From IMG/VR virus record IMGVR_UViG_3300046170_000494, positions 32,001-96,000 of that record: a stretch of 64,000 nucleotides of DNA; one strand, 5' to 3'. The notes below the pieces were generated by a model. That model did no database searches. It saw nothing but the letters and a program-made list of their open reading frames with translations, and was not told the DNA's origin. This document shows positions 5,224-61,900 of this stretch, one piece after another. The number at the start of each line of letters is the position of its first letter. The first letter of the stretch is position 1. The position numbers were made by a program, and so were the translations under genes. This DNA comes from a virus.

Positions 5224-5958
5224 ATGCCTCGACGCAAGAAAAAACCGGAAATCGTGAATGAGGATGATATCGAAAGAATTCGTACCTCATTAACCAAAAC
5301 AAATATAAAACTTAAACAAATAAGTTTAACGGACAAACAAAAACAATTATTAAAAATAATCTTTGACAAAGATAGTAAAATAATATTTATTAGTGGTCCC
5401 GCTGGAACAAGTAAAACATATGTTGCAATATATGGAGCCTTGCAATTATACAACATGAATAATGAGCGCGGAATTACTTATGTTCGAACAATTGCAGAGA
5501 GTGGTGAAAAAAGTCTTGGAGCGTTGCCTGGCGAAATGGCGGAAAAAATCAATCCATACATGATGCCAATGAATGAAAAACTAGATGAATTATTAATTCC
5601 TGGTCAAGCAAGTATAGTAAAAGACAAAGAAATAGTTAAAGGTATGCCTATCAACTACTTACGCGGAGCAAGTTGGCGCGACGAGATTGTAATCGCGGAT
5701 GAATCTCAAAATTTCACATTTAAAGAATTAACAACATTAATGACACGTCTTGGTCGCGGCAGTAAATTAATTATTTGCGGTGACCCTATGCAAAGTGATA
5801 TTAATGGGAAAAGTGGATTTGCAGATATGTACTCTGTGTTTAATGATGAAGATAGTCGCGAGAAAGGAATACATACTTTTCATTTCGGAGCAGAAGATAT
5901 TCAAAGAAGTGAAATACTTAAGTATGTAATAACTAAAATTCAAAATCATAAAAAATAG
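5224..5958 (+). CDS. phoH: PhoH-family ATPase
   Basis: Walker A GPAGTSKT, LGALPG, YLRGASW, DESQN, TRLGRGSKLIICGD; likely ATG at 5224. Confidence 0.95.
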   Translation: MPRRKKKPEIVNEDDIERIRTSLTKTNIKLKQISLTDKQKQLLKIIFDKDSKIIFISGPAGTSKTYVAIYGALQLYNMNNERGITYVRTIAESGEKSLGALPGEMAEKINPYMMPMNEKLDELLIPGQASIVKDKEIVKGMPINYLRGASWRDEIVIADESQNFTFKELTTLMTRLGRGSKLIICGDPMQSDINGKSGFADMYSVFNDEDSREKGIHTFHFGAEDIQRSEILKYVITKIQNHKK

Positions 5959-5971
5959 TGTATGAAGTACT

Positions 5972-6502
5972 ATGTCTATTCAGTTATTAGCATCTTCTCC
6001 AGGCCAAGTAGGAGTTGATAGTATTCGCACTGCAGTTAATACTGTATTAACTACAATCGGCGCAAGCACTACTCCATTAACAGCTAGCCCTGGTCAAACT
6101 TCAGTTGACACAATTAGAACAAAGGTTAATCAATTATTGCAAGATGCAGGTTCAACTATTACTTTATTATCTGTAAGCCCGAATCAAATTACAGTTGATC
6201 AATTAAGAACTAAAGTTAACGAAATCATTCAAGCCGCAAATGATGGAACGATAGGTGGAAGATTCAACTTTGCTCTACTTGAAAATAGCGACAAGATATT
6301 GATTGAGGTCGGCGGAGGACTACTTCTTGAGGGTGGTCAAAGTCTTGACAGATTAACCTCAGAATCTGAAGTTGACATTATCACAGAAGGAACTGAAGAT
6401 TTTATTGTTGTCGAAGGAGACGCTAGCCTTAATGCACTTTCTCTTGAGAATGGAGATGAATTATTGCTTGAAGATTTAGTTACTACATTAGATTTAGAAT
6501 AA
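5972..6502 (+). CDS. putative virion protein with two kinds of internal repeat
   Basis: Three ~29 aa SPGQxxVDxIRTKVN repeats followed by LxENGDxLLLE-like acidic repeats. Confidence 0.6.
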   Translation: MSIQLLASSPGQVGVDSIRTAVNTVLTTIGASTTPLTASPGQTSVDTIRTKVNQLLQDAGSTITLLSVSPNQITVDQLRTKVNEIIQAANDGTIGGRFNFALLENSDKILIEVGGGLLLEGGQSLDRLTSESEVDIITEGTEDFIVVEGDASLNALSLENGDELLLEDLVTTLDLE

Positions 6503-6528
6503 TATAAAAAATTAGTGTATAATAAATT

Positions 6529-7809
6529 ATGGCCGATTCAAAGATATCAGATTTACCAGAAAGCTCAAATCCAAATCCATTATCAAAAGTAATTACTGCT
6601 TATAATGGACAAAATTATCAAGTGCCTTTAACATCTCTTGTTTCTAGTGCTAGTGCTCCTAAATTTGTGTTTTATTTAAATTCTTCGGGGACCGCAAACA
6701 ATAATAGTTCTTTTGAAGATTTGAATCTTCAGCCGGGCCAAAATGATTTTCAAATAGCGTCTACTCGATTTAATTCTTTTAAATTGTGTATGATATGGAT
6801 TCGGAATAATTTAGGTGCGGGCGGAGGACTTGTTCATATAATATTCGAAACAAATATCTCAGATACTCGGGGTTCTCAACCGATGTTTTCAGATGCAAAA
6901 ACAGATATCTATGTTTTTGGAAATAAAGTAGTGGGGGAATATTTCTCTCAAGGTGTTAATGGCTCTATACCATCTTCATCGAATAACCCTGGACCAAGGT
7001 TAACTTATACTCTTGACGGCACAGCGCATCAAAATACCCCTAACTTTATAGACTTTTGGTTCAATGGCAGAATAACTTTCTACGGTTTAAAATTTGATAT
7101 TAAAAATTTTAATAATCAAGGGCAATCCTTTGGTCTTTTCAGATTTTCTTATAGGAATGCATATAGTTTTTTTAATGGGGTTACGGTTAAAGTCGCAACG
7201 GGAAATAATAATACGAGCGTTCCGAGGGTTATTGAGGCAGATGGAGGAGCAATATTTTGCAGTTCAATCATAATAGGGTCGGGCTCAATCGATATTTTAG
7301 ACTCATTTTTTTCGGGTAATTCTAGATTAGCAGCTTTTGAATTTGAACTTGCTCAAGGAAGTGGCGTTGGCGATTTTTTCTCTGTAAATACAGGAGCGCT
7401 TGCGGGAGTAACTGAGTTTGGTTATATGCATTTTGGCGTTTCAAGTTATACAGCTAATGCTAGAATACATTTTATAAACAGTTGTACTATGTCGAACTTT
7501 GTTGCCATACAATCTGGATCTGAATTTTCAACAAATGGAATGTGTGTATCTAAAGCAAGTGGAGTGACTGTCAGTTCGGGTGATGCGATAGAGGCTAATG
7601 CATTTAACACTTTATTAATATCAAATTTTGCTGGATCACTTACAAGTACATCTACAACTACTAATAGTGGAGTGCAAAGACTGCCAGGAACAAGAAAATT
7701 TGGAAGTGGTAATACAGCGGGTCAAGACTATATTATATTCCCAGACGATTTTACTAATGTATCAAGCGGAAGTATTGTAACCGCTCCCCATGCACGTTAT
7801 ACCAGATAA
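6529..7809 (+). CDS. tail fibre/spike-like protein
   Basis: N-terminal KISDLP anchor motif; Gly/Ser/Asn-rich beta-type body. Confidence 0.65.
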   Translation: MADSKISDLPESSNPNPLSKVITAYNGQNYQVPLTSLVSSASAPKFVFYLNSSGTANNNSSFEDLNLQPGQNDFQIASTRFNSFKLCMIWIRNNLGAGGGLVHIIFETNISDTRGSQPMFSDAKTDIYVFGNKVVGEYFSQGVNGSIPSSSNNPGPRLTYTLDGTAHQNTPNFIDFWFNGRITFYGLKFDIKNFNNQGQSFGLFRFSYRNAYSFFNGVTVKVATGNNNTSVPRVIEADGGAIFCSSIIIGSGSIDILDSFFSGNSRLAAFEFELAQGSGVGDFFSVNTGALAGVTEFGYMHFGVSSYTANARIHFINSCTMSNFVAIQSGSEFSTNGMCVSKASGVTVSSGDAIEANAFNTLLISNFAGSLTSTSTTTNSGVQRLPGTRKFGSGNTAGQDYIIFPDDFTNVSSGSIVTAPHARYTR

Positions 7810-8018
7810 TGAATGAATTAAATATATATCACACATCATTCCTTCCTTCTAGGGAGGATACATATAAAAACCCAGTATATGACAAAAGCGGGAATCTCAT
7901 AAAAGCCACTAAATGCTGCACAAAAGAAGATATTACTCCAGGCCATAAAGATTGGGACAGCGCTGTAGAATTTATTAAAATTGGCTACCCCAAAGATATT
8001 TCCGAAAAAACAGAATAA
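7809..8018 (+). CDS. small protein coupled to the fibre gene (possible assembly chaperone)
   Basis: TAATG overlap with the preceding stop; 69 aa. Confidence 0.5.
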   Translation: MNELNIYHTSFLPSREDTYKNPVYDKSGNLIKATKCCTKEDITPGHKDWDSAVEFIKIGYPKDISEKTE

Positions 8019-8027
8019 TTTAATATC

Positions 8028-9407: not shown

Positions 9408-9411
9408 TATT

Positions 9412-10293: not shown

Positions 10294-10318
10294 GTTTTAT
10301 TTTCGTGTATTTTAATAC

Positions 10319-10630
10319 ATGAATTTAATTATAGAATCTTGCTTATCAGAACCTCCTAGTGAAATTTATTGTTTTCGCGATATTACATTGTATGCTCGCA
10401 CATATATTTTTGATGATATTTTATTAGAATGTCCACCAGGAACGCGCACTGCTTATTGGAATTGGTTGAAGCATTATGGCGCGCATGACTTTATATCTTA
10501 TCTTGTTCGAAATACTGAAAATGAAACTGGGTATACAATAAAAACGGCCAACGATGCTAATATCACCGTTGACCGTATTGACGTCAGAAATTTAAACGAT
10601 ATTATCCTTCGCCTGCAGGCTCTTCGCTAG
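10319..10630 (+). CDS. hypothetical protein
   Basis: 103 aa; GTGTA 14 nt upstream. Confidence 0.65.
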   Translation: MNLIIESCLSEPPSEIYCFRDITLYARTYIFDDILLECPPGTRTAYWNWLKHYGAHDFISYLVRNTENETGYTIKTANDANITVDRIDVRNLNDIILRLQALR

Positions 10631-10901: not shown

Positions 10902-10907
10902 AATATA

Positions 10908-11114: not shown

Positions 11115-11255
11115 TAGTATATAGTAATATAATATATTTAAAAGTAAAGTGTTTTTTAATTTAAAATTGTTTATTATAAATTATAATGAATATTATGGAA
11201 TGCAGAGAGGTTCTGCAGGAATCTATATAGAAACTTTTAGTGTAAATATATTTTA

Positions 11256-11738
11256 ATGTCTAATAAAAAAATAAGTGAAATTCCAGAAATTACAAATAGC
11301 GCTTTTTCTGCGTTCGGTCATCAGTATTATGTGATGGTTGAGAAAGCTGATGGAACGCTTTATAAAATGCTAGCAAATGAGGCTTTGAAACCTGCAGAAA
11401 GTTTAAGTAGTTTTGTATTTTTAGATGGACATAAAAAAATTCATACTTTTGGAAGCGATATTTCAACTGGTGGAGTCATCACTAATACAGTAAATTTATC
11501 TCAACATGGAGTACCTCAAGGTGCAACTACCGCAATTATTTCTGTAAAAATAACTGGAGGTAATTACCCCTCTTACAGCCTTAACTTTAATGGAGTAGAT
11601 GTAATAAGGTGGCATGGGGTAGGTCACCATTGGACTCAGCAATACACCGTTCCAATCAGCAACTCAAAGCTTGAAATAAAACTTTTGGCGAAAAATGTGA
11701 AAAACACTATAGAAATTTTTCTTAACGGATATGGCTAA
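11256..11738 (+). CDS. short fibre-like paralogue 1
   Basis: KKISEIP anchor; LSxxGVPxxA module shared with the next two genes. Confidence 0.65.
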   Translation: MSNKKISEIPEITNSAFSAFGHQYYVMVEKADGTLYKMLANEALKPAESLSSFVFLDGHKKIHTFGSDISTGGVITNTVNLSQHGVPQGATTAIISVKITGGNYPSYSLNFNGVDVIRWHGVGHHWTQQYTVPISNSKLEIKLLAKNVKNTIEIFLNGYG

Positions 11739-12261
11739 TAAAAAAATATCTGATTTACCTCAAATCTCTTCAAATTCTTTTGATGCAGATGAAGATTATC
11801 TACTTGTGCAGAGAAATTTATCGAACGCTCCTACGTTTAGGGCTAATGTTTCTTATGCAACTGCAAGCGCTCAATCTTCTAAAAAAATAACACTATTTGA
11901 CGGGAAGAAAAGCATTTTCGACATGCCAAATATTGGCCACGCTTCAAATTCATATAACCCCCCGGCGGAAAATAGGCAAAGAGATGTTTATGATTTAAGT
12001 CTATTGGGAGTCCCAAAAACAGCTTCTGCGGCTTATGTTAGTTTTGATCATCACGGCAGTGGTTGGCCTGCTTTAGTTTTTAACTATTACAATAATGCAA
12101 CCACTTCTCAATCTCATAGATTTGAATATTGGTATAAGAGGGGTATAATGAGCAATCATACCTTGTGGATGCCTTTAGACAACGCCAAGCTTCATATTCA
12201 ATGGGTATGGGTTTATTTTTATACTGCTTCGTGTAGTTTTTATCTTCACGGTTACGTGTAA
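11731..12261 (+). CDS. short fibre-like paralogue 2
   Basis: KKISDLP anchor; LSLLGVPKTA. Confidence 0.65.
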   Translation: MANKKISDLPQISSNSFDADEDYLLVQRNLSNAPTFRANVSYATASAQSSKKITLFDGKKSIFDMPNIGHASNSYNPPAENRQRDVYDLSLLGVPKTASAAYVSFDHHGSGWPALVFNYYNNATTSQSHRFEYWYKRGIMSNHTLWMPLDNAKLHIQWVWVYFYTASCSFYLHGYV

Positions 12262-12934: not shown

Positions 12935-12959
12935 CTTTATAAATAAAATCTGAGATAAT
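12931..12959 (+). promoter_or_regulatory. sigma70-type leaderless promoter
   Basis: TTGACT(12931-36)-N17-GATAAT(12954-59); ATG at 12966. Confidence 0.7.
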
Positions 12960-12965
12960 TCCAGT

Positions 12966-14543
12966 ATGAAATATTGGATATTATTTTTATTAGTTTTAGT
13001 TAACGTTTATTCTATTGAATTTGAAGTAATTCAAGAAACAGGTGATTCTAGAAATAGATACGACTTAGTTTTTATTGGAGATAGATATTTTGAGGGTGAA
13101 ATGCAAGAATATGCAGAAGATGTTAATGATATTTGGTTTGGTTTAATTAAAGACTACGCATTCTGGAATAGGTATAAAAACTTTTTTAATGTATATAGGT
13201 TGGATGCTATAAGTGTCGAAAATAACCCTGAAGAAATAAGAGACCCGGTCAATTCCTATTTAGGGCTAGACTTTATTAAAGGGGTTAGACCTGGGTGGTC
13301 GCAAATGTGGAATAGAAATTTAGAGTTATTTAAAAAATTAGGGGTGGGTCATGATTCAACGATTGTATTGACTAACAGATGGTATAATCTGGGGACAGCT
13401 TTGATGCACCCCGGGCAAGATCATATTGGCATAGGAATTTCAGTTTCTTCTGCAAAATTATCTATTGTTAATCATGAAATGGGGCATATATTGTCACTTG
13501 CTGCAGACGAATATCTTAACCAAGCAAACTTTTTAACCCTGAGGGCTCCTAACTTTGCTAAAACAGCGGAGATAGGTTATGAAAAATGGGGTCATTGGAT
13601 TGGTTATACTGATCCTTATACTAAGTTCGAAATAAAAGAACCTTTTAAGCGAAAAGGTACTAACTATTTTGTGCCAACAGAATCAAACGGTATAATGCAT
13701 CATGATAATACTGGAGATTTTCATGCAGTTAATAGAGAAAAAATGATATTAGCAATGTACAATTGGTTAAATCCAATTGATAGTTTTACAGAAAATAATA
13801 CAACAATTACAAGTGATAAGATTTTAGAAATAAATGTTATTGATCCAGAAGTGATTTCGGTTGCTTGGATTTTAGATGATCAAATTATTTCTAGATCAAA
13901 TACTCTAGAATTAGATGTATTTAATATTAAAGAGGGTTCAATAATTTACGGCTGCGCTTGGGATACGGCTCTCAACTCTGATTACAAAACAAATGATCGC
14001 GGAGGTTGGGTAAGAAAGGATGATGACAATTTAACTTACCAAATTATTTCTTGGGAAATATCTGGTCAAAAAAAGCAATATTCGGGAAGCGAAAATCCTA
14101 ACATATTAAAAATATTATTAGACAATACTCTTAAAACAGAATTTAAAAAAGCTGACATCCCCAATAATGAAGTTTCAAACAATAACAACATCGAGCAAGT
14201 TCAAACAGAAGAATCAAAAGTTTTAATTCAAAGTGAAATAGAAGAATTAAAAGTTCAAATCGAAAGTGAAAATGAAAAGTTTATTAGTTCTAGATTTCAC
14301 AATGACCTAATCAAGATTAATGAAAATAACTGGGTAGACGCAGGTTTTTTTGGGATTTTGCGTGTTTTTGATAACGGCTGGGGTTACCATGTCAATCACG
14401 GCTGGATATATATCGCAGAAGATACCGAAGATTTTTCTTTATGGTTCTGGAGTGAATCTATGAAAGACTGGATGTGGACAACTGAAGAATTTCCTTCTTA
14501 TTTTTATTCCAACAATCTAGGGGATTGGATTTATATTAATTAG
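12966..14543 (+). CDS. secreted M64-family (IgA-peptidase-like) metalloprotease with Trp/Tyr-rich C-terminal module
   Basis: Signal peptide; RYDLVFIGDRY, RYKNFFNVY, HEMGHILSLAADEY (HExxH...DEY). Confidence 0.8.
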   Translation: MKYWILFLLVLVNVYSIEFEVIQETGDSRNRYDLVFIGDRYFEGEMQEYAEDVNDIWFGLIKDYAFWNRYKNFFNVYRLDAISVENNPEEIRDPVNSYLGLDFIKGVRPGWSQMWNRNLELFKKLGVGHDSTIVLTNRWYNLGTALMHPGQDHIGIGISVSSAKLSIVNHEMGHILSLAADEYLNQANFLTLRAPNFAKTAEIGYEKWGHWIGYTDPYTKFEIKEPFKRKGTNYFVPTESNGIMHHDNTGDFHAVNREKMILAMYNWLNPIDSFTENNTTITSDKILEINVIDPEVISVAWILDDQIISRSNTLELDVFNIKEGSIIYGCAWDTALNSDYKTNDRGGWVRKDDDNLTYQIISWEISGQKKQYSGSENPNILKILLDNTLKTEFKKADIPNNEVSNNNNIEQVQTEESKVLIQSEIEELKVQIESENEKFISSRFHNDLIKINENNWVDAGFFGILRVFDNGWGYHVNHGWIYIAEDTEDFSLWFWSESMKDWMWTTEEFPSYFYSNNLGDWIYIN

Positions 14544-14733: not shown

Positions 14734-14761
14734 ATAACATATTACACTTTTTTTTATTAAA

Positions 14762-15370: not shown

Positions 15371-15411
15371 TGTAGTATAATATACACTGAAATACTGGTG
15401 TATATAAATAT

Positions 15412-16091: not shown

Positions 16092-16678
16092 ATTCAGGTT
16101 TAGATATTATAAGCGTGCTGACAGGATTGGTTTCTGCCGCGACTGCAGTTTTAGGTGTCTGGTTAAAGATTAAATATGACGAAAATAAAAACAAGCAATT
16201 AAATTATGATCCGCAATTACATGGAAATGTAGTAACTGCTTTAGAGTTTATATTGCAAGAAACTGAAGCTGATAGATCTTACGTTTTAGAATTTCACAAC
16301 GGAGAACATTATTTTTCGGGCAGAAGTCAGCAAAAATTAAGTTGTACATACGAGATAGTGAGCGAAGGTATTTCAGTTGAGTCTCAAAATATTCAAAATA
16401 TAAGAGTTTCTAATTTTCACGGGCTAGTTAAATCAATATCACAAGATCAAACTTTTGCTTGCAGAAATGTTGACCGATATGATGACGATATGTCTTTTAG
16501 GGCTTTTATGCAAAGCAAAGGGGTTAAAAGTATGTTTGCTCGACCAATAAAAACCTTAAATGGAAAAATTATAGGAATTATAATTCTCGAATATGTGAAA
16601 GAACCTAGGCGATGGAGTGATGATGCAGAAGAGTTTTTAAAGAAACAGTCTCGAATAATAAGTGGTTATTTGATATAA
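16088..16678 (+). CDS. N-terminal TM + GAF-like domain protein (T4 holin T-like layout)
   Basis: ATGA overlap at 16088; TM helix; ADRSYVLEFHNG ... IKTLNGKIIGIIILEY. Confidence 0.6.
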   Translation: MNSGLDIISVLTGLVSAATAVLGVWLKIKYDENKNKQLNYDPQLHGNVVTALEFILQETEADRSYVLEFHNGEHYFSGRSQQKLSCTYEIVSEGISVESQNIQNIRVSNFHGLVKSISQDQTFACRNVDRYDDDMSFRAFMQSKGVKSMFARPIKTLNGKIIGIIILEYVKEPRRWSDDAEEFLKKQSRIISGYLI

Positions 16679-16705
16679 TTATTTTTTTTATTATAATAAA
16701 TTAAT

Positions 16706-17071
16706 ATGGCTTTTTCTTACTGTCCTCATTGTGGGTTTAAAAATATGTATTCTATGCAAGCGCCAAAATTTTGTGGTGGTTGTGGAGAAAGTTTGAGTAT
16801 ATTGTCTGCTGCAAAAACTCAAAAATCTATTTCACGCAAACAGGTTTCTCCCCAAAGAAATCAAGTGGTTGATGATCCTGACGGAGTTGACATTTACGAA
16901 GTGCCTCACATTTCAAAATTGTCGTATAGTATAGAAACAGATAAAAACAAATTCGATTTAAAAGATTTAGTTCCATTGGAAGCTCTTGAGGAATTTAATG
17001 AAGATGAGGGAAAGTCAACTGTAAAAAAACAAGCAACAAAAAAGAAGCGTGGAAGACCAGCAAAGCGATAG
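16706..17071 (+). CDS. zinc-ribbon protein
   Basis: CPHCG ... CGGCG at the N-terminus. Confidence 0.7.
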   Translation: MAFSYCPHCGFKNMYSMQAPKFCGGCGESLSILSAAKTQKSISRKQVSPQRNQVVDDPDGVDIYEVPHISKLSYSIETDKNKFDLKDLVPLEALEEFNEDEGKSTVKKQATKKKRGRPAKR

Positions 17072-17792
17072 TTTTTCATACGAGGACAAAGCTGAAGAGA
17101 TTGACATAGAGATTAAAAAAAGAAGAGGCAAGTGGTTTTTAGATTCTCTTGCTTGGTTCGACTTTGAAGATGTAGAGCAAATTATAAAAGCTCATATTTA
17201 TAAAAAATGGCACCAATGGGATCAACGAAGGTCTTTGAAGCCGTGGGTTAACAAAATTATAACTAATCAAATGAAAAACATCTTGCGCAATAACTATAGT
17301 AACTTCGTTAGACCTTGTTTGAATTGCCCATTTAACCAATCAGGTCCCGCTCAAGATGGTTGTAGTCATTCTCTATGCGGTTTCACAAAAAGCGGGCTGC
17401 AAGACTCGACTTGTCCATTGTACGCAAAATGGGAACGAACAAAAAAATCTGCTTATGGAATTAAAATGGCTTTAGCTTTAGAAAACCATAGCCACGAAGT
17501 TGGGCAAATGCAAGACGGAAGCTTTGATATACAACAGTGTCAGGATAAATTAAATGAGTATATGAAAAAAGATTTATCCGAAAAACAGTTTACCGTATAT
17601 AAATTACTTTTCATTGATCATAAAAGTGAAGAAGAGGTTGCTAAAAAAATGGGTTATAAGACTTCCGAAAAAGGGAGAAAAGCGGGATACAAGCAAATTA
17701 AAAATCTTAAAAAAATATTTAAACAAAAAGCGCAAGAAATACTTGAAAAAGAAGATATTATTCCGGTAAAAAGTGTGATGCTATGGAGTTAA
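17049..17792 (+). CDS. sigma70/ECF-like RNA polymerase sigma factor with Cys-rich insert
   Basis: Region 2-like EDVEQIIKAHIYKKWHQWD...KPWVNKIITNQMKNILR; region 4 HTH LSEKQFTVYKLLFIDHKSEEEVAKKMG; GTG start. Confidence 0.75.
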   Translation: MEDQQSDSFSYEDKAEEIDIEIKKRRGKWFLDSLAWFDFEDVEQIIKAHIYKKWHQWDQRRSLKPWVNKIITNQMKNILRNNYSNFVRPCLNCPFNQSGPAQDGCSHSLCGFTKSGLQDSTCPLYAKWERTKKSAYGIKMALALENHSHEVGQMQDGSFDIQQCQDKLNEYMKKDLSEKQFTVYKLLFIDHKSEEEVAKKMGYKTSEKGRKAGYKQIKNLKKIFKQKAQEILEKEDIIPVKSVMLWS

Positions 17793-22288: not shown

Positions 22289-22304
22289 GTGTAACACTTT
22301 GCAA

Positions 22305-25723: not shown

Positions 25724-25753
25724 TCCACCTCAGGCAACTGGGGTGGATTTTTT
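25724..25753 (+). terminator. intrinsic terminator
   Basis: TCCACCTCAG-GCAA-CTGGGGTGGA followed by a T run. Confidence 0.9.
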
Positions 25754-25808
25754 ATTTAATTTATTTATAATAAATGTGTATTAATACATAAAGGTAAAAG
25801 GTAAAATT

Positions 25809-26739: not shown

Positions 26740-26759
26740 TTTTAAGTGTAATAAATATT

Positions 26760-29715: not shown

Positions 29716-29737
29716 TTTCATATTATTACACGTTAAA

Positions 29738-37593: not shown

Positions 37594-37617
37594 AAGCCCC
37601 CGTAAGGGGGCTTTTTT
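37594..37617. terminator. intrinsic terminator between convergent nrdB and DUF1501 genes
   Basis: AAGCCCCC-GTAA-GGGGGCTT followed by TTTT. Confidence 0.85.
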
Positions 37618-38908
37618 ATGACAAGATATCAAGTAAAGGCTCGCCTTTATGAGCTATTGTAAAAGGTCTTCCAGAAGGAGAATATTGGTAGTCATTTAAT
37701 GGTAAGCCTAAAGTGTGTGCAATTGTAGCATTTAAGTCTTCTGGTTTAACAGGCTTGCCTTCTGTAGGAGTGCGCCCCGTTTTGTCGGTTTCTCCATAAG
37801 TCATTCCACCTTTAACTCCTCCTCCTGCTAAAAAAGCTGTAAAGCAATAAGGCCAGTGATCTCTTCCGTCTCTTCCGTTAATATTTGGAGTTCTTCCAAA
37901 TTCAGAAGTTAAAACTACCAAAGTGTCAGAAAGCATACCTCTTCGATTTAAATCGATCAACAGTCCACTTAATGCTTGATCGATATCTGTGCAATTTGCC
38001 GCTACTCTATCAAAGTTATTATCATGTGTATCCCATCCTCCTCTTGTTACTTCAACATATCTTACCCCATGTTCTACTAACCTTCTTGCTAATAAGCATC
38101 CTTTTGCAAAATTAGTTTGACCATAAAGATTACTTGTTGACTCAGGCTCTTTTGTGATGTCAAAAGCGTTTAAGTCATTACTATTCATTAATTTAATTGC
38201 GTCTTTATATAAGTCAGAATAAGCTCTTACTTTTTTCTGCGGAAATTGGGTAGAAAAATTTTCATTTAAAGCTTCTGCGATAGATATTCTACTTTGAAAA
38301 TGCTCATGATCTAAGTATGAAGCCATTTTGCTATTAGCTAATCCTGAGTTTGGATTATTAATTGGTAATGCTCCGTATTTAGATTCTAAAAAACCAGCGC
38401 CGCCTCCGCCGCCTCCTATTTTAACATTGCTGGGTATTGTTCTGTTGATTGAGCCAGAAAGTTTGGACACCCAGCTACCAAATGTAGGATGAACAATTGT
38501 GCCTCTTTTAAGATAGCTTGTATGCATTAAATAACTGGCTTGCTCGTGAGCTCCTTGGCTTGTGTTCATTGTTTTAATTATTGCTGCATGATGCATAAGC
38601 TCGGCGGTCTTTGGTAGGTTTTCCGAAAGGATTACTCCATCTGCGCTTGTTGGAATAGATTTAGTAGGGCCTTGAATATCTGGTGCGTCTGGCTTCGGCC
38701 CAAATGTATCAAGGTGAGACATGGCTCCTCCCATATTTAAATAAATTACGTGCCTTGCGGTAGGAACTCTTGCTCCTGGATTTAACGCGCTAACACTATT
38801 ATGTATATACGCTCCTGCCATTGGCATAAGACCCACCCCAAAACATGCTTTTGCAGCATGAGCTATAAATTCTCTTCTTCCTAATTCGTCTATTGTATTA
38901 AAGTTCAT
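37616..38908 (-). CDS. DUF1501 family protein with Tat-like signal
   Basis: GRREFI Tat motif; YLNMGGAMSHLDTF.PKP, HEQASYLM, CLLARRLVEHGVRYVEV..GGWDTH, SEFGRTP, GRDHWP. Confidence 0.93.
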   Translation of the reverse strand: MNFNTIDELGRREFIAHAAKACFGVGLMPMAGAYIHNSVSALNPGARVPTARHVIYLNMGGAMSHLDTFGPKPDAPDIQGPTKSIPTSADGVILSENLPKTAELMHHAAIIKTMNTSQGAHEQASYLMHTSYLKRGTIVHPTFGSWVSKLSGSINRTIPSNVKIGGGGGGAGFLESKYGALPINNPNSGLANSKMASYLDHEHFQSRISIAEALNENFSTQFPQKKVRAYSDLYKDAIKLMNSNDLNAFDITKEPESTSNLYGQTNFAKGCLLARRLVEHGVRYVEVTRGGWDTHDNNFDRVAANCTDIDQALSGLLIDLNRRGMLSDTLVVLTSEFGRTPNINGRDGRDHWPYCFTAFLAGGGVKGGMTYGETDKTGRTPTEGKPVKPEDLNATIAHTLGLPLNDYQYSPSGRPFTIAHKGEPLLDILS

Positions 38909-38961
38909 AATAGATTATTACACAATTTTGAGAAAAGTCAACAGGAAGTGTATGATATATT

Positions 38962-39348
38962 GTGCGGTTTTTATTGCTTATATTCATTATACCCAGTATT
39001 TTATGCGCTAGATTGCAAAGAGAAGATTATTTAGATAATTGTGATTGGTGCAAAAATCAAGCTAAGTCTACTCAGCCATTAGATATCGGCGAATGGAGCA
39101 TGAGGTGCCAGCAAAAACCGAAACCAATATGGTTTAATTATAGAAATATAGGCAGAGCATATGGAACTTATAAAGAAAAAACTTCTATGTGTTGGATTTA
39201 TTCTGAAAAATTAGGTTGGATATATAACACTCCTCAATATAAAGATTATATTTATACTCACAAACTTGGATGGATCTACGTAAAAGATGGCAAGGTTTAT
39301 GTCTTCAAAAAGAAAAAGTGGGATTATTTTACAAATATAAATTCATGA
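38962..39348 (+). CDS. secreted protein with CxxC and LGWIY repeats
   Basis: Signal peptide; CDWC; WIYSEKLGWIY and IYTHKLGWIY; GTG start 14 nt after GTGTA. Confidence 0.65.
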   Translation: MRFLLLIFIIPSILCARLQREDYLDNCDWCKNQAKSTQPLDIGEWSMRCQQKPKPIWFNYRNIGRAYGTYKEKTSMCWIYSEKLGWIYNTPQYKDYIYTHKLGWIYVKDGKVYVFKKKKWDYFTNINS

Positions 39349-41594
39349 GTATTAATTAATGTCCAAATTATTTCTTTGTATGCATCTTTTTCGTTTTTAA
39401 TATTATCAGTAAATATTTTCATTTCTTTAGAAGAGGGTTTTCTATTTAATATATATTTATATCCTGTTGTAATTTTATCATTCAATGACTTTTGCGACTG
39501 TATTGCTTTTATAATTTCAAAGTTTTTATTTTTTAATAATCTAGTTTCAACAAAACCATTAAGAAGATTTAATACTTGTGTTGCAGAGGCGCTTTTATTT
39601 GCGTTTTCTATCTGTTCCCTATCTGAACCACCAAACTCACGAATAAGGTGCCCTATGGGCGCAGGAGAAGGTAGTTCTGAGGCTCTTACTGAATTGCGGT
39701 CTTTTACAAAGTTTTGCTGATATTCTTTTTTCTTGTTTTCAATCTGAGATTTGAATTTATCAACACAAGATTCGCAACAAAAAGCTAAAGTCTCTCCGTT
39801 TTCATTTAGAGCTAATAATGTTGGGTCTATTGCTCTGCCAGGTTTAATTGGACAGTCTGTGTTTATTGGCTTGCTGAATTTAGACTCGCTTTGAGTTTTA
39901 GGTCTTTCAGTTTTGTTGATTTTAGCCATCAATTCCGAAAACAATTCTTCTCCTGTCATTTCTGAAAAATTTTGAAAATTTTGATATCCTTTTGTATTTT
40001 GCTCTAATTTTCTAGAATCAACATTATTTACCGTTAAATTAACTAAGGAATCCCAGATTTGTTCTCCGCTCATTCTTTCAAGCATGGGTCCTTGATAGAA
40101 ATAGGGTACTGCATTTTTGGATTGATTTTCGCTATCTGGACCAGCCACAATCCATTTTACTTCTACGGGCATAGACTGATCTTTATTGTCTTTGGGAATA
40201 ATGTCTCTCACCACAGATTGGCGCTGAAAAGTTTTTGTATTATATAATATTCTAAGAAATTCCTTAAGGTCATAATTTAATGCAACCATAACTTTTTCGA
40301 GGTGAAGTTGAAGTTTTGGATCGGTCGCTAATGTATCATCAAACATATTGTCTATGGGTTCAATTAATGCTAGTCCAAAAGCTTCTTTCCAGAGTCGGTT
40401 AACAATAACTGCTGTAAATCTTGGGTTTGAATCTGAGGCTAGCCAGTTTGCATAAATTTCTCTAGATCCTGATTGAGGGGCTTTTGTTTTAATGTCTATC
40501 TCTTCTCCAAAAATAGTTTTACCCATTAATGCTTGGTTTGGTTTTCCGTTGTCGTATTGATAATCTTTTGGAAGATTTATCTTTCCATTGCCCATACTAG
40601 CTAGTCCAGTTTGAAGAATGTCTTGTATGTCTCTCACTCCGTTTTGTAATTGCCTTGATTTTTGCGGTTCATCATTATTTTCTAATTTGCGCCTTTCATC
40701 TCTAGCCAATCTGTTTAATATGGTTAAATTTTCTGGACTTTTGGTTCTTAAGTTAGTTGAGCCACTCGTAAAAGCTGCCATTTCGTAAAATTGCTTTTGA
40801 GTCCAGCGATCAAATGGATGATCGTGGCATTGGGCGCATTCTAAGCTCGTACCTAAAAATACTCTAACTGTATTTGCCATACTGTCTAATGGCATATTTA
40901 CATCACGAGCAAAATAACTAACTCCCTCATTACCTTTAATCCATAGTGGGCCAGAAGAAGAAAGCATCTCTCTTACCCATTCATCATAAGGTTTGTTATT
41001 GGAGATGAAGTCTTTTACATAATTTTTATATGGAACGCCAGATATTCTATTGTTTAATCTATCTTTAATTCTTAATATATCTGCCCAAAAGTTAAACCAA
41101 TGGCTTACATATCCTTCGCTACCTAATAATTGATCAATTAGCTGCGATCTTTTATTTTTATCTTTACTATTTAAAAAAGAATCTACTTCTGTTAAAGATG
41201 GAGTCCTGCCAATAACCTTTAAGTATGATCTGCGTAAAAATGTAGCGTCGTCAACTTCTTTATTTGGTCGAAGATTATATCCTCTAAGTTTTGTTTCAAT
41301 CAAGCTATCAATATAATTAGCATGAGTTTTTAAATCTTTATCTGATAAGGGTTTTTTGAATTTGGGTAGAGCTTCATGGCTTGGGGGGAAATTATTTTTA
41401 ATATATGCTTGATTATCTTCTGTGAGAGAATCTATTGCTATTCTAAATAACTGTAAATCACTAGATCTTTTTATTAAAGCGTGAGTCGCATTTGCCTCAA
41501 GAATATCTCCTTTTAGATCTTTTCCGTTGTTAAAATAAAGCGTATCGCCGAAGCAATAGATTGATGATAAGAATAATAAAATTAGTTTTTTCAT
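39324..41594 (-). CDS. DUF1549/DUF1553 protein with N-terminal SHD1-like and inserted YHS-like domains
   Basis: Signal peptide; DDATFLRR, CAQCHDHPFDRWTQ, NPRFTAVIVNRLW; insert CPIKPG...AFCCESC. Confidence 0.9.
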   Translation of the reverse strand: MKKLILLFLSSIYCFGDTLYFNNGKDLKGDILEANATHALIKRSSDLQLFRIAIDSLTEDNQAYIKNNFPPSHEALPKFKKPLSDKDLKTHANYIDSLIETKLRGYNLRPNKEVDDATFLRRSYLKVIGRTPSLTEVDSFLNSKDKNKRSQLIDQLLGSEGYVSHWFNFWADILRIKDRLNNRISGVPYKNYVKDFISNNKPYDEWVREMLSSSGPLWIKGNEGVSYFARDVNMPLDSMANTVRVFLGTSLECAQCHDHPFDRWTQKQFYEMAAFTSGSTNLRTKSPENLTILNRLARDERRKLENNDEPQKSRQLQNGVRDIQDILQTGLASMGNGKINLPKDYQYDNGKPNQALMGKTIFGEEIDIKTKAPQSGSREIYANWLASDSNPRFTAVIVNRLWKEAFGLALIEPIDNMFDDTLATDPKLQLHLEKVMVALNYDLKEFLRILYNTKTFQRQSVVRDIIPKDNKDQSMPVEVKWIVAGPDSENQSKNAVPYFYQGPMLERMSGEQIWDSLVNLTVNNVDSRKLEQNTKGYQNFQNFSEMTGEELFSELMAKINKTERPKTQSESKFSKPINTDCPIKPGRAIDPTLLALNENGETLAFCCESCVDKFKSQIENKKKEYQQNFVKDRNSVRASELPSPAPIGHLIREFGGSDREQIENANKSASATQVLNLLNGFVETRLLKNKNFEIIKAIQSQKSLNDKITTGYKYILNRKPSSKEMKIFTDNIKNEKDAYKEIIWTLINTHEFIFVK

Positions 41595-41629
41595 TGTAGG
41601 ATTATAATATTTACAAACTATAATTACAC

Positions 41630-41655
41630 AAAAAAGCCACCCATTTCTGGGTGGC
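41630..41655 (-). terminator. intrinsic terminator
   Basis: Minus strand GCCACCCA-GAAA-TGGGTGGC-TTTTTT. Confidence 0.85.
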
Positions 41656-47482: not shown

Positions 47483-47487
47483 GCTAT

Positions 47488-48888: not shown

Positions 48889-48890
48889 AG

Positions 48891-49925
48891 TTATTTATTA
48901 CACAATAAATTGTAATCATTATCGTACATTTTTTGAACTAATTTTTTAAAATTTGTTTTTCTTTTCCAACCCAATTCTTTTTCAGCTAAAGATGGATCTC
49001 CGCATAGTTTATGAACTTCTGCAGGTCGGTAGAATTTAGGGTTTACCTCAAAAATTAATTGACCATCTAAAGTATAATATTTTTCATTATCTTCAGATCC
49101 AGAAGATTTAAATTGAATTCCTGCACATTTTAAGGTTTCATTTAAAAACTCTCTCACGGTATGCATTTCACCGCTGCCTAGAACATAATTTTTAGGTTTT
49201 TCTTGATTAAGCATGAGCCAAACGCCTTCCATGAAATCTTCTGCGTCGCTCCAATCTCTTTTAGCTTCTAGGTTTCCGAGTTTTAAAACAGGTATTTGTT
49301 TTTTGTCTTCTATAGCTAATTTTATTCTGGCTACCGTATGGCTAATTTTTCTTGTTACAAAATCCAAGCCTCTTCTTGATCCTTCATGATTAAATAGCCA
49401 ACCTTGAACTGCGTACAAGTTGTAAGATTCCCTGTAAACCCTGACAATATGTCTAGCTGCGCATTTCGCGGCGCCATATGGGCTTTGCGGTCTGAGGGGA
49501 TGGTTTTCGTCTTGAGGAGAGAAAACAACGTCACCAAATTCTTCACTGCTTCCAGCATTGTAAAATCTACAGTGAGGAGAAAACCTTCTAATTGATTCTA
49601 AAATATGTAGCACTGCATTAGAATCTGTTTCCCACGTTTGTATTGGATAATTCCAACTCCCAGCTACAAAAGATTGTGCAGCAAAATTTATGAAAAAATC
49701 TGGCTGTAAATCAATCACTATATCGCGAATACTATGTGCGTCGTTTAAATCCATATCAATTAGCTCAAATCGCGATTCATTTTCTAGATGTAAAATATTT
49801 TCATGGTTTTTCACGCTTAAGCGTCGCGCTGTACCGTATATTTTATAATTTGTATTTTTTAAAAGATAGTCAATCATGTGACTACCATCTTGACCTGTTA
49901 CTCCTGTTACTATAATTTTTTTCAT
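48891..49925 (-). CDS. gmd: GDP-mannose 4,6-dehydratase
   Basis: TGVTGQDGSH, PQSPYGAAK, LFNHE, FVTRKI, LGNLEAKRDW. Confidence 0.93.
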   Translation of the reverse strand: MKKIIVTGVTGQDGSHMIDYLLKNTNYKIYGTARRLSVKNHENILHLENESRFELIDMDLNDAHSIRDIVIDLQPDFFINFAAQSFVAGSWNYPIQTWETDSNAVLHILESIRRFSPHCRFYNAGSSEEFGDVVFSPQDENHPLRPQSPYGAAKCAARHIVRVYRESYNLYAVQGWLFNHEGSRRGLDFVTRKISHTVARIKLAIEDKKQIPVLKLGNLEAKRDWSDAEDFMEGVWLMLNQEKPKNYVLGSGEMHTVREFLNETLKCAGIQFKSSGSEDNEKYYTLDGQLIFEVNPKFYRPAEVHKLCGDPSLAEKELGWKRKTNFKKLVQKMYDNDYNLLCNK

Positions 49926-53933: not shown

Positions 53934-53964
53934 GTTTGTATGGTATCATATGTATAGAATATAG

Positions 53965-54246: not shown

Positions 54247-54263
54247 AAATTATATTACACACA

Positions 54264-56095: not shown

Positions 56096-56116
56096 TCACT
56101 AAGTTTAACTTGTGAA

Positions 56117-58198: not shown

Positions 58199-58434
58199 TG
58201 TATTCTATAATTTGAATTAGGTGGTTGTTTTTTATTGAGGGGATCTACTTGCGAAATGTCTGTGCGGTTTGAATTCGCATAATACCCGCGGTTATCGTTA
58301 GGGTAATACTCTCTTTCTCCTTTTTTAGCTGTTTCTTCAACTTCTTGTTGAGAAGAATAATCGTATGGCCCTGGGGTTAAATCTCTATTATCGTTGCTGT
58401 ATCTAAAATTTGGATTTTCTGTATGTTCACTCAT
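58195..58434 (-). CDS. hypothetical protein
   Basis: Start moved to MSEH at 58434, 14 nt after GTGTA. Confidence 0.6.
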   Translation of the reverse strand: MSEHTENPNFRYSNDNRDLTPGPYDYSSQQEVEETAKKGEREYYPNDNRGYYANSNRTDISQVDPLNKKQPPNSNYRIQ

Positions 58435-58614
58435 ATATATCATTACACTCCATATCTGAAAGTTTTACGGTTATCGTCTGCCCATTGTCAAGTTCAATAG
58501 TCGCAAACTTAGCTCCATCTTCAGGACCTCCTAGTTCTTCGTATTCATTTATAACTTTGCCAACCATTTCTTTTCGTTGACTTTAACTATGCATATTTTA
58601 GGTTTTTCTTTCAT
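58427..58614 (-). pseudogene. small gene split by a one-base frameshift (or programmed -1 shift)
   Basis: ATG 58614 (GTGTA 14 nt upstream) gives 21 aa then TAA; the -1 frame continues MVGKVINEYEELGGPEDG...DIYE to 58427. Confidence 0.45.
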
Positions 58615-58709
58615 ATTTTTATATACACATTTATATTTTAAGTGCAAAAGTTAAAAGTTAACTTTGGACTTTTATTAGACTTTACTTTAACTTATGTGTA
58701 TCATAAAGG

Positions 58710-60698
58710 ATGAGCAAAAGAAAATATACTAAACGCTCCGATTATTGGAATAAGTTTGATAAAGATGACGATGATAACCTCAAGCGTTTAATAGAAATTC
58801 CCATCTCAGAACCCTTTTCTTCCGGAGAGCCTTATTACTCTGAATCAAAAGCTTCATCGTATTCCAGAACAGAATCTAAGTCTGACGAGTTTGCATCTAG
58901 GAGAAATGCAACTCATAAATCTAGTAAAAAATTTAGGTTTTCTAATATATCGGGGGGCATGTTGCCTTATGTTTATGGTCATGACGGAGTAAATGTAAGA
59001 GATTCTATTGAGTTGTGTCAAAAAGCTTACGCTAATATATCTGTTTTTAGAAATGCGATTGATGTAATGTCTGAATTTGCTAACTCAAATCTCTATCTCG
59101 AAGGAGGGACTCAAAAATCTAGAGACTTCATATATAAATGGTTTGATAAAGTTAACCTCTGGAACCTTAAGGATCAGTATTTTCGAGAATATTATAGGAG
59201 TGGAAATATATTTTTATACAGAGTAGATGGCGAATTTTCTAAAACAGACTTTGATAAATTGAGTAAGATATATGGATCAACAATATCTTTAAAGCCTGGA
59301 AAATTACCTGTAAAATATATAGTTCTTAATCCTTATGATATTGTTGCGACAAAAGGTTCTTCTTTTGAAACGGCTTTATACGAAAAAATATTATCCGAAT
59401 ATGATATAGAGAGACTTAAAAACCCCAAAACAGACTATGATTTACAGGTATACGAATCATTAGATGAAGATATTAAGGAGAAAATTAAAAATGGAAAATA
59501 TAATCAGGACGGACTTAGGGTTAAATTGGATCCGAGTAATTTGGTTTACTCTTTTTACAAAAAACAAGATTACGAACCTTTTGCTATTCCTTTTGGTTAT
59601 CCTGTGTTAGATGACATTAATTTTAAATTAGAACTAAAAAAAATCGATCAAGCTATATGTAGGACAATTGAAAATGTAATTCTTCTCATTACTATGGGTG
59701 CAGAGCCTGATAAGGGAGGTATTAATCCTCGAAATATGGAGGCGATGCAAAATTTATTTAAGAACGAAAGTGTCGGGAGGGTTTTGGTTAGTGACTATAC
59801 AACAAAAGCTCAATTTATTATACCTGATATTGGTAAGGTGGTTGGCCCCGCTAAATATGAAGTAATTAATAATGACATTAAAGAAGGTTTGCAAAATGTT
59901 ATTGTCGGAGATGAAAGGTATAGCAATACTCAAGTGAAAGCTAAGATATTCTTAGAAAGATTAAAAGAGTCTAGGAATGCTTTTATTTATGATTTTTTGC
60001 AACCTCAAATAAAAATGATTTGCCAGAATTTAGGGTTTAGAAAATACCCGAAAGTCAAGTTTGAGGAGACGGATATTAAAGACGAAGTTCAATTACAGAG
60101 GGTCGCTACTAGACTAATGGAATTAGGCTTAATTACTCCACAACAAGGAATGACCGCGATAGAAAAAGGTATATACCCTAATCCCGAAGAATTGGATGCA
60201 GCTCAGGAGGAGTATATAGAGCAAAGGAAGAATGGGTTATATAATCCAATAGTAGGTGGAGTACCAATGGTTTCCCCTGAAGTTGGGGTTACTGAGACAG
60301 AGGTTCGAAACAATACGACAAAAAATGAAGTTGGTAGACCTGTAGGAACTTCTGATATACCTCAAGAATCTTCAGCATCTTTATTTAGTAGAGAAGATAT
60401 TCAATCTGTTATTTATAACACAGAAGAATTAAGAAACTTTGCTCTAGCTGAAATTAAAAATAAACTTAAAAGAAAAAGATTACGAAAACAAGAGAAAAAT
60501 ATGATTGATGAATTATGTCAATCAGTTATAATTTCAACTAATAATAAAAAGTGGAAGGATAGGATTGCATCATGCATTAATGATTCTAGTAATATAGGAA
60601 ATTTACATCCAAAGACAGAAGTGCAAGATATAGCTTCAGAGTATAATCTTGATTTGTATTCTGCAGCTTTGTTATATCATAGCCAAAAGGAGGTTTAA
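58710..60698 (+). CDS. portal protein
   Basis: 662 aa; AYANISVFRNAIDVMSEF, YYRSGNIFLY, YKKQDYEPFAIPFGYPVL. Confidence 0.75.
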   Translation: MSKRKYTKRSDYWNKFDKDDDDNLKRLIEIPISEPFSSGEPYYSESKASSYSRTESKSDEFASRRNATHKSSKKFRFSNISGGMLPYVYGHDGVNVRDSIELCQKAYANISVFRNAIDVMSEFANSNLYLEGGTQKSRDFIYKWFDKVNLWNLKDQYFREYYRSGNIFLYRVDGEFSKTDFDKLSKIYGSTISLKPGKLPVKYIVLNPYDIVATKGSSFETALYEKILSEYDIERLKNPKTDYDLQVYESLDEDIKEKIKNGKYNQDGLRVKLDPSNLVYSFYKKQDYEPFAIPFGYPVLDDINFKLELKKIDQAICRTIENVILLITMGAEPDKGGINPRNMEAMQNLFKNESVGRVLVSDYTTKAQFIIPDIGKVVGPAKYEVINNDIKEGLQNVIVGDERYSNTQVKAKIFLERLKESRNAFIYDFLQPQIKMICQNLGFRKYPKVKFEETDIKDEVQLQRVATRLMELGLITPQQGMTAIEKGIYPNPEELDAAQEEYIEQRKNGLYNPIVGGVPMVSPEVGVTETEVRNNTTKNEVGRPVGTSDIPQESSASLFSREDIQSVIYNTEELRNFALAEIKNKLKRKRLRKQEKNMIDELCQSVIISTNNKKWKDRIASCINDSSNIGNLHPKTEVQDIASEYNLDLYSAALLYHSQKEV

Positions 60699-60701
60699 GA
60701 A

Positions 60702-61211
60702 ATGGGAGCCTTCGAAACTTTCGTAAATGCTAACTTAGGTATAAGAAAGCCTTTAATCCTTGATTCCGGGCATCCAACCGGAAGCTTTAAAGCTGCAGGT
60801 ATAGTTGGTTCTGAATATATAGATACTGATACGAATGAAATCTACGAGAAGACTGGGGAAAATAATTTACGCGATTGGTCTTTAATTAGGAAACTTGGAG
60901 ACTCGCTTGAGGATTCTCAGTCATCTGTTTCTGCTCAAAGTTTTTCTGCATCGATAAACGTTCCATTAAATGCAGATAATTTAAATATAAAGTTCGATGA
61001 TTTAGGTAACGAGAATGTATATCTTGAAGCTCCTAGGGTTTTTGTTTCCTTGAGGTTTAATGATTTACCTGAAGATCTGTATGCTCACTCTATTTATGGA
61101 GTAAATTCAGAAGGTTTTAATATTCAACTGTCAGACGAAATGGCTCAAACAGGTTGTTATTTAGATGTACTGGTTACTGCTTCACCGGATCAAATTAGCG
61201 GTTCATTTTAA
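60702..61211 (+). CDS. putative virion protein
   Basis: G.P..S...G.VGS.YIDT.T..IYEK..W motif; C-terminal beta-sandwich-like PRVFVSL. Confidence 0.5.
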   Translation: MGAFETFVNANLGIRKPLILDSGHPTGSFKAAGIVGSEYIDTDTNEIYEKTGENNLRDWSLIRKLGDSLEDSQSSVSAQSFSASINVPLNADNLNIKFDDLGNENVYLEAPRVFVSLRFNDLPEDLYAHSIYGVNSEGFNIQLSDEMAQTGCYLDVLVTASPDQISGSF

Positions 61212-61886
61212 AGGCTTTAAGTTTCTTGCTATTATTTCAAATATAGATTTTTTTATTTGTTCGTCACCTTTGTCCCATTTATACATTATATCATTTTTTA
61301 TATGGTTCATTTGTTGCTCCATTTTTTCGATCTCTTTTTTTAATTGATCTATAAATTCAGGAGAAATTGTTTTAACGCCCACGTTAAGTTCTAGGGCTAC
61401 TTTAAGTATTTTGCGAAAATCTCCATTCTGTTTACCTTCAATGACCTCATTGTACATATCTAACCTTTCATTGGTTTCGTTTTCAGGTAAATCTTTATTT
61501 AAATCCGGGTGAGTTTTTTTAACAACTTCACGAAATAAATCATTCATCTCGTCATTAGATAACTCTGTTGACTTATCTTTTTTATCTGGAACAGATTCAA
61601 ATGGGTGTTGTATTTTTTTATTGTCGCAATATTCAAGCATGGCTGCAATAAACTTTCTTCTAATTTCTTCAAATTCTTCAACCAGCTCTTCATGTTCTAG
61701 ATTGAGATAGATCGCTTTATGCCTTAATTTATTGAAAACTTTCTTTAGTCTTTTTTGAGCTTCTGGCGCAGAATACTTGACAGGTAAGTTTTCTTTTATA
61801 TATTTTTTATTATCGGGCTCATATTTACCTAGTGGATGTTTTTCTCTTTCTGAGAATAAATCATTAAACAAATCTTTTCTATTCAT
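61203..61886 (-). CDS. J-domain (DnaJ-like) co-chaperone
   Basis: LFREVVKKTHPD in a helical context. Confidence 0.75.
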   Translation of the reverse strand: MNRKDLFNDLFSEREKHPLGKYEPDNKKYIKENLPVKYSAPEAQKRLKKVFNKLRHKAIYLNLEHEELVEEFEEIRRKFIAAMLEYCDNKKIQHPFESVPDKKDKSTELSNDEMNDLFREVVKKTHPDLNKDLPENETNERLDMYNEVIEGKQNGDFRKILKVALELNVGVKTISPEFIDQLKKEIEKMEQQMNHIKNDIMYKWDKGDEQIKKSIFEIIARNLKPLK

Positions 61887-61900
61887 ATATTATTTTACAC

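Follow-up and report, generated by a model that had tools for sequence, protein, structure and literature searches.

In bacteriophage T4, late promoters (TATAAATA) are recognized by gp55 acting with gp33 and the sliding clamp, and gp55 consists of a sigma2-like part only. T4 late mRNAs carry leaders with Shine-Dalgarno sequences. In phage phiEco32, early genes depend on the host sigma factor and the two-domain phage sigma factor gp36 redirects the host RNA polymerase to promoters carrying AATGTA centred at -11.5 (-14 to -9), that is T-12 G-11 T-10 A-9; the C-terminal domain of gp36 contacts -37 and -34 despite the lack of a visible -35 consensus (PMC12276001). Among the extracytoplasmic function (ECF) sigma factors, E. 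coli sigmaE has the -10 consensus T-13 G-12 T-11 C-10 A-9 A-8 A-7, a variable loop, which determines specificity, receiving the flipped-out -10 base (PMC4598750), and M. tuberculosis sigmaL reads the -10 word CGTGTCAG (C-14 G-13 T-12 G-11 N C/A A G), spacers of 4-7 nucleotides (nt) being functional (PMC6372665). Leaderless mRNAs are known for lambda cI transcribed from PRM and, among mycobacteria and mycobacteriophages, for numerous genes (PMC4633059).

Here we analyzed the five-base word GTGTA in a 64,000-nt stretch of the IMG/VR virus record IMGVR_UViG_3300046170_000494, from an uncultured marine phage (the window; all coordinates are window positions unless a relative is named). As judged from the sequence, GTGTA marks a real, conserved and phage-specific promoter class. 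In its A/T-rich context the word probably represents the -10 element of a phage-specific class of middle and late promoters which lacks a -35 element, is most likely read by a phage-encoded ECF-type sigma factor and yields leaderless or nearly leaderless mRNAs. A literature search on GTGTA with phage late promoters found no description of GTGTA phage promoters.

Position and conservation of GTGTA before start codons

The window has a G+C content of 34% and contains about 75 genes, with Shine-Dalgarno sequences nearly nowhere. A preliminary description of this DNA had reported 12 starts with GTGTA beginning 14 nt upstream and six more at 15-17 nt. All were recovered, every coordinate being correct, and they are listed here together with three copies lying further upstream of a gene.

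5194-5198, + strand: GTGTA flanked by A/T-rich DNA, 30 nt upstream of ATG 5224, which is in frame in a PhoH-like gene
5958-5962, + strand: GTGTA, 14 nt before ATG 5972 (176 aa, no assigned function); its first G also closes the stop codon of the preceding gene
6515-6519, + strand: GTGTA, 14 nt before ATG 6529 (426 aa), at the head of a run of fibre genes
10305-10309, + strand: GTGTA, 14 nt before ATG 10319; retained in some relatives
11240-11244, + strand: GTGTA, 16 nt before ATG 11256
14743-14747, - strand: GTGTA, 14 nt before ATG 14733 (65 aa); found again, between differing flanks, in about 18 of the 23 diverged upstream regions of its orthologues
15383-15387, - strand: GTGTA, 17 nt before ATG 15370; back to back with the 15398 copy in a 41-nt gap
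15398-15402, + strand: GTGTA, 14 nt before ATG 15412 (144 aa); kept 14-15 nt before the start in 22 of the 25 diverged orthologues
22289-22293, + strand: GTGTA, 16 nt before ATG 22305, directly after the terminase stop codon; retained in about 40 relatives
25776-25780, + strand: GTGTA, 33 nt before ATG 25809, with a 28-nt leader containing AAAGG-type words; 22 nt after a terminator
26746-26750, + strand: GTGTA, 14 nt before ATG 26760
29727-29731, - strand: GTGTA, 16 nt before the second ATG (29715) of ClpC (Pfam)
38919-38923, - strand: GTGTA, 15 nt before ATG 38908 (DUF1501)
38948-38952, + strand: GTGTA, 14 nt before GTG 38962 (doubtful 128-aa open reading frame)
41625-41629, - strand: GTGTA, 35 nt before ATG 41594 (DUF1549/DUF1553 protein), with a terminator immediately upstream
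48899-48903, - strand: GTGTA, 15 nt before ATG 48888 (466 aa, DUF5824)
54256-54260, - strand: GTGTA, 14 nt before ATG 54246
58444-58448, - strand: GTGTA, 14 nt before ATG 58434, within the last codons of a small upstream open reading frame
58624-58628, - strand: GTGTA, 14 nt before ATG 58614 (small open reading frame)
58696-58700, + strand: GTGTA, 14 nt before ATG 58710 (662 aa)
61896-61900, - strand: GTGTA, 14 nt before ATG 61886, abutting a terminator T-run

The word is not over-represented in the window, where 59 copies were counted on both strands versus 63 in dinucleotide shuffles. Ten of these copies are found exactly 14 nt before an ATG opening at least 50 codons, for which random placement predicts 0.19; the 12 starts mentioned above are these ten plus the short open reading frame (ORF) at 58614 and the GTG start at 38962. 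The positional enrichment proposed in the preliminary description was also borne out by shuffling of the 40 nt upstream of 76 modelled starts, which in 20,000 trials gave a mean of 0.058 copies and a maximum of 2 versus the 10 seen at -14. About 20 of the approximately 75 genes are preceded by GTGTA.

The relatives surveyed for the word were 80 related IMG/VR loci totalling 1.07 Mb. They contain 717 copies of GTGTA, of which 242 stand 14-17 nt before an ORF-opening ATG with the following distances.

GTGTA-to-ATG distance in the 80 loci: 13 nt, 0 copies; 14 nt, 104; 15 nt, 71; 16 nt, 29; 17 nt, 38; 18 nt, 5

In a more distant clade, with a terminase identity of only 71-76%, 33 copies were present at 14 nt, 20 at 15 nt and none at 13 nt. 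The word is retained at the orthologues of 14733, 15412, 22305, 26760 and ClpC, the adjoining intergenic bases having diverged; in front of ClpC it was seen in 18 relatives, each time with the ATG-N3-ATG arrangement. All five bases of GTGTA matter: 24% of its copies are located at 14-15 nt, versus 0.2-3.6% for each of the 15 one-base variants. In functional copies, A or T occupies 11-16 of the 16 flanking bases, which is not the case for most intragenic copies. Among 118 non-redundant sites, a mild A/T preference was observed just upstream and downstream of the word and no -35 element was detected, the information content being about zero over positions -50 to -8, counted from the word. The earlier remark that no -35 was evident is in agreement with this result.

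Two start codons that had been corrected on the basis of the word, 22305 and 58434, agree with orthologues that have no earlier start. The hidden ORF proposed at 58614 exists intact, with 59 aa, in a near relative of 122 kb, but is broken in the window after 21 codons by a 1-nt indel. The indel lies in an A-run, as seen on comparison of window positions 58420-58614 (- strand), behind the GTGTA ending at 58628, with positions 11724-11906 (- strand) of locus L184 of that relative, and the remainder continues in another frame; the break may be a genuine frameshift or may stem from misassembly. For the doubtful ORF at 38962, amino-acid identity to a relative is 90.6% and DNA identity 89.3%. The start of the PhoH-like gene is probably ATG 5224 rather than TTG 5170; in this region (5194-5958) a TATAAT is also present 8 nt before ATG 5224. 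The DUF1501 gene and the adjacent DUF1549/DUF1553 gene (37616-41594, - strand) each have their own GTGTA.

Gene names proposed earlier were confirmed by Pfam for ClpC and DUF1501, but not by Pfam or PHROGs for the portal, the protease/scaffold, the lysis cluster and the J-domain protein. The copy at 22289 heads a run made of a portal-position gene, a gene matching phage cement protein (Pfam) and a capsid-position gene. Pfam and PHROGs name few of the GTGTA-preceded genes, and a clean late/structural split was not obtainable from them.

Start-site geometry and translation-related alternatives

The word had been described as a promoter and not as a Shine-Dalgarno sequence, and its one-sided spacing, the terminators abutting it and its distant copies with a leader all sustain this view. 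The floor at 14 nt and the tail to 17 nt would arise because the start site is fixed relative to the word, the ATG being placed at or after the start site and never before. A hard lower limit with a one-sided tail fits such a fixed start site and not the optimum of a ribosome site. In the 14-nt sites, a pyrimidine immediately precedes the ATG in 94% of cases and is followed by A. Pyrimidine then A is the usual start-site preference of bacterial RNA polymerase, with which a pyrimidine at -1 and A at +1 are in agreement.

A non-Shine-Dalgarno ribosome-binding or translation-enhancer element placed at Shine-Dalgarno-like spacing would account for the fixed short distance from start codons, for the near absence of Shine-Dalgarno sequences in this phage and for copies found before genes within same-strand runs, where the gaps are 13-26 nt. 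It is opposed by the shape of the spacing distribution and by the three copies located 30-35 nt upstream of a gene, at 5194 (30 nt), 25776 (33 nt) and 41629 (35 nt). The sole distant copy checked in relatives was that at 25776, where GTGTA and the AAAGG-type leader are both retained in eight of them at 28-42 nt, so the word works away from the ATG. Furthermore, most genes are devoid of GTGTA, including tightly coupled ones. At 61901 and 41630 the word is directly abutted by a terminator, a perfect G+C-rich hairpin with a T6 run, and a third such hairpin ends 22 nt before 25776.

25724-25753, + strand: intrinsic terminator closing the structural operon headed by GTGTA 22289
41630-41655, - strand: intrinsic terminator abutting GTGTA 41629
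61901-61926, - strand: intrinsic terminator abutting GTGTA 61900

The signal is also absent from a candidate host metagenome-assembled genome (MAG; 2.7 Mb), in which GTGTA-N9-ATG gave 36 matches versus 40 for a control pattern and no enrichment before genes, and GTGTA has no known complementarity to the 16S 3' end. A ribosome element of this kind appears extremely improbable.

The terminators leave no space for another promoter between themselves and the word. The divergent pairs noted previously at 15383-15402 and 58624-58700 are real, with two outward-facing copies in each gap (41 nt, 15371-15411, and 95 nt, 58615-58709). These arrangements bear on a third explanation, in which GTGTA is either the site of a phage regulator acting over another promoter or an RNA-processing site where transcripts are trimmed to leaderless form. 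Being short and invariant amid weak surroundings, GTGTA could be a half-site for a protein, and processing to leaderless mRNA is known for MazF. However, no other promoter is visible in the 41-nt divergent gap or between terminator and word, and the word is neither palindromic nor repeated, unlike usual operators. Processing would in addition need a nuclease cutting exactly 9 nt away from its own site, for which we know of no precedent. This third explanation is considered very improbable. Between the copies of the second divergent pair, about 45 nt (58640-58685) are identical in a relative whereas the flanks differ; the stretch, a possible operator, includes a perfect palindrome, AAAGTTAACTTT.

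Leaderless placement is also seen at the sigma70-type promoters of the phage (TTGAC/TTGCA, spacer, TAnnnT), which end 6-8 nt before the ATG with both the peak and the lower limit at 6 nt. Such a distance of 6-8 nt is the textbook one from the -10 hexamer to the start site. Promoters of this type were noted at 12966, 36553, 53933 (- strand) and 56095 (- strand) and before the early genes at 470-4580 (- strand). On the evidence of both promoter types, leaderless placement is a general habit of this phage, and the geometry claimed for GTGTA, with predicted transcripts starting at the ATG or within 1-3 nt of it, is upheld. When the TA of GTGTA is read as the beginning of a hexamer, 5 nt remain to the ATG; this is one below the sigma70-type limit of 6, which points to a reader different from sigma70.

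The candidate sigma factor and the register of the word

A candidate for the cognate sigma factor is encoded in the window, behind promoters of host type.

16671-16697, + strand: two host-type promoters in front of the sigma operon, an extended -10 (TGnTATAAT) followed by a second TATAAT 8 nt before ATG 16706
17049-17792, + strand: candidate cognate sigma factor of 247 aa, with ECF-type sigma2 and sigma4 domains and a conserved four-cysteine insert in the linker

The product matches Pfam Sigma70_r2 with 24.0 bits, which equals the cut-off, and r4_2 weakly (15 bits). A search of 1.84 billion representative proteins placed it in a family of 422 clusters at 50% identity, mostly of 220-245 aa, whose alignment has an N-terminal part resembling sigma2, a linker with four cysteines that are invariant or nearly so, and a C-terminal helix-turn-helix part. 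Across 52 family members these cysteines correspond to C90, C93, C110 and C122 (residues approximately 89-122, window 17310-17420), and they probably form a zinc site where other ECF sigma factors have a plain linker. Compared with the PDB, the family profile retrieved ECF sigma factors only (SigR, a sigmaE/SigW chimera, SigW, CnrH and RpoE), with E-values of 7e-4 to 1e-2 for region 2 of SigR, SigW, CnrH and RpoE.

An AlphaFold2 model of the product was obtained with a predicted local distance difference test score (pLDDT) of 88. Whole-chain alignment with VIA-align gave the best matches with the sigmaL, sigmaH and sigmaE chains of RNA polymerase complexes (Z 8.2-8.9, the highest for sigmaL). 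Residues 8-84 superpose on the N-domain of SigE with Z 7.9 and a root mean square deviation (rmsd) of 2.3 over 73 residues, and residues 157-239 superpose on region 4 of sigmaL (Z 8.0, rmsd 3.0 over 73/73 residues) and of SigA (rmsd 1.7 over 64); for helical domains a Z of about 8 gives moderate support, which agrees with the sequence evidence. Foldseek alone returned weak E-values with sigma chains on top, the domain-level comparison being clearer. A sigma2 domain and a sigma4 domain with a helix-turn-helix were both found, and 247 aa leave no room for a sigma3 domain. By its sequence and its model, the product of 17049-17792 is an ECF-type two-domain sigma factor and not a gp55-like protein.

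The sigma gene is conserved in all relatives covering the region, and both sigma-operon promoters are conserved in more than 20 of them. In G003, the near relative of 122 kb, its orthologue is the only credible sigma factor. A second Sigma70_r2 match in that genome (14.9 bits) was rejected as a sigma factor, since hmmscan did not reproduce it and it sits in a replication module. The operon also encodes a 121-aa zinc-ribbon-like protein (16706-17071) overlapping the sigma gene by 23 nt, and the conserved GTG start of the sigma gene is preceded by an A-rich run in every relative. The 121-aa protein could be a partner or an anti-sigma of the sigma factor, or be joined to it by frameshifting.

If +1 is assigned to the A of the ATG in the 14-nt class, GTGTA and the bases after it are G-14 T-13 G-12 T-11 A-10 w w A-7. 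This would place a GT-containing -10 word in the sigmaE register, and by sequence and fold the phage protein is nearest to the ECF sigma factors. In PDB entry 5or5, an engineered sigmaE region 2 (SigW type, B. subtilis) is bound to GTAAAA. The preliminary description had found the word one base out of register for a TGn extended -10; the puzzle disappears once GTGTA is read as an ECF-type -10 (T-13 G-12 T-11 N-10) rather than as a shifted TGn element. Aligned with the sigmaE, sigmaL and gp36 words, GTGTA predicts transcription from the first base of the ATG or from the base preceding it.

These data suggest the following order of events. The host sigma factor would come first and express the phage sigma gene from the host-type promoters at 16671-16697; host RNA polymerase carrying the phage ECF-type sigma factor would next read GTGTA without a -35 and so transcribe the GTGTA regulon. 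Transcription would start 9-10 nt downstream of the word's final A. In the 14-nt class this would fall on the A of the ATG or on the preceding base, and in the 15-17-nt class it would leave a leader of 1-3 nt; the resulting mRNAs, leaderless or nearly so, would be translated without a Shine-Dalgarno sequence. We infer the start site, the reader and the timing of the class from these features.

Reading by a host sigma factor has also to be weighed. The primary sigma factor, using GTG as an off-register extended -10 before TAwwAw, or a host ECF sigma factor could recognize the sites, perhaps with a phage co-factor, the phage sigma factor having another regulon. The sites do read TAwwAw, a -10-like hexamer, downstream of GTG, and Verrucomicrobia carry many ECF sigma factors; moreover, the phage sigma factor is tied to the motif by inference. 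However, T at the last position of the hexamer is only 41-53% conserved while G, T and G are invariant, the gap from hexamer to ATG is shorter than the sigma70-type limit, GTGTA is not enriched before genes in the host MAG, and no other phage motif is left for the conserved phage sigma factor. A host reader therefore appears unlikely.

Several observations weigh against reading by the phage sigma factor. About 40 copies of GTGTA are found elsewhere in the window, so that context or a co-factor must add specificity to the bare five-base word. Near a distant, 37%-identical sigma locus, only two candidate GTGTA sites were present in 20 kb (a single such phage being examined). The association of sigma factor and motif is drawn from co-occurrence and resemblance. 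ECF sigma factors normally need a -35 element, while here a sigma4-like domain is retained without a visible target; by analogy with the gp36 C-terminal domain, it may make weak upstream contacts. Lastly, a sample of the candidate host displayed neither a Shine-Dalgarno peak nor leaderless sigma70 geometry, as judged with crude start calls; this candidate host sample thus lacks the leaderless habit, which on these sequences looks phage-specific.

As in phiEco32, a phage two-domain sigma factor would redirect the host RNA polymerase, with early genes on the host sigma factor, and the promoters share with those of gp36 one short TGTA-containing word near -11 and the absence of a recognizable -35 consensus. 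By this analogy the GTGTA class is a variant of a known phage strategy. It differs by the base before TGTA (G here, A in phiEco32), by promoters set against the start codon, by the four-cysteine insert in the sigma linker and by the lack of an identified gp79-like partner. Concerning a relation to gp36, tblastn against all phage records gave no match and the PDB profile search did not list gp36 up to E 10; more distant homology may escape these searches. Cellular ECF promoters depend on an AAC-type -35, whereas no such element (AAC type, 16-17 nt upstream) was found in the 118 sites, and leaderless mRNAs are not the rule in cellular ECF regulons.

A likeness to T4 gp55 had been put forward for a -10-only late promoter. 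The -10-only promoter stands, as does a credible cognate sigma factor, and like the T4 late promoters the class would be read by a phage sigma-like protein. The analogy with gp55 itself does not hold, because the phage product also has a sigma4-like domain and the words differ, and 'late' is too narrow because the regulon includes the PhoH, ClpC, DUF1501 and DUF1549/1553 genes besides structural ones. The lambda cI and mycobacterial leaderless mRNAs share with the present ones a -10 at a fixed short distance from the ATG and an mRNA predicted to start at the start codon, but they depend on the host primary sigma factor, whereas the present phage places both its sigma70-type promoters and a phage-specific class in this way.

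A broader proposal is tentative and we would sooner doubt than assert it: that a large undescribed family of phage ECF-like sigma factors (the 422 clusters, with a zinc-ribbon-like four-cysteine insert) reads bare GTGTA without -35 contact, the promoters of both the host and the phage sigma factor being set against starts and nearly the whole transcriptome being leaderless. If true, translation without Shine-Dalgarno recognition would be phage-wide, in a host that does not itself work so. If the GTGTA class is confirmed, it would provide a second example, unrelated to phiEco32, of a phage sigma factor working from a single TGTA-type word, a natural ECF-fold sigma factor working without a -35, and systematic leaderless expression in a phage of a likely Verrucomicrobiota host, a phylum with almost no studied transcription or translation signals. 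It would also supply an annotation rule for very abundant uncultured marine phages, giving true starts, small hidden genes, operon boundaries and temporal classes from sequence, and the five-base orthogonal promoter with its sigma factor could serve synthetic biology.

Relatives, host lineage and neighbouring features

The gene content of the window includes a T4-type terminase, fibre genes, ClpC, a DnaE-type polymerase, a ribonucleotide reductase, PhoH, DUF1501 and a DUF1549/DUF1553 protein. By megablast, 20 kb of the window gave no match to named phages, and tblastn of the terminase against named phages detected Firmicutes phages only, at about 25% identity; with no close named phage, there is no cultured relative as a source of transcript data. 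In IMG/VR, at least 573 stretches carry a relative of the terminase, on contigs reaching approximately 100-125 kb and in one case 195 kb. Genes with 72-80% identity to the DUF1501 gene occur on large contigs of MAGs from marine Opitutales (Verrucomicrobiota), and from this one auxiliary gene the host lineage is likely to be Opitutales.

Two further features of the window were noted. The 525-aa product encoded at 12966-14543 matches Peptidase_M64 (IgA peptidase) and has a sigma70-type leaderless promoter in front. In the early region, four near-identical elements made of a hairpin and a T-run (1002-1028, 2071-2097, 3172-3198 and 4054-4080, + strand) are located on the strand opposite to the small genes.

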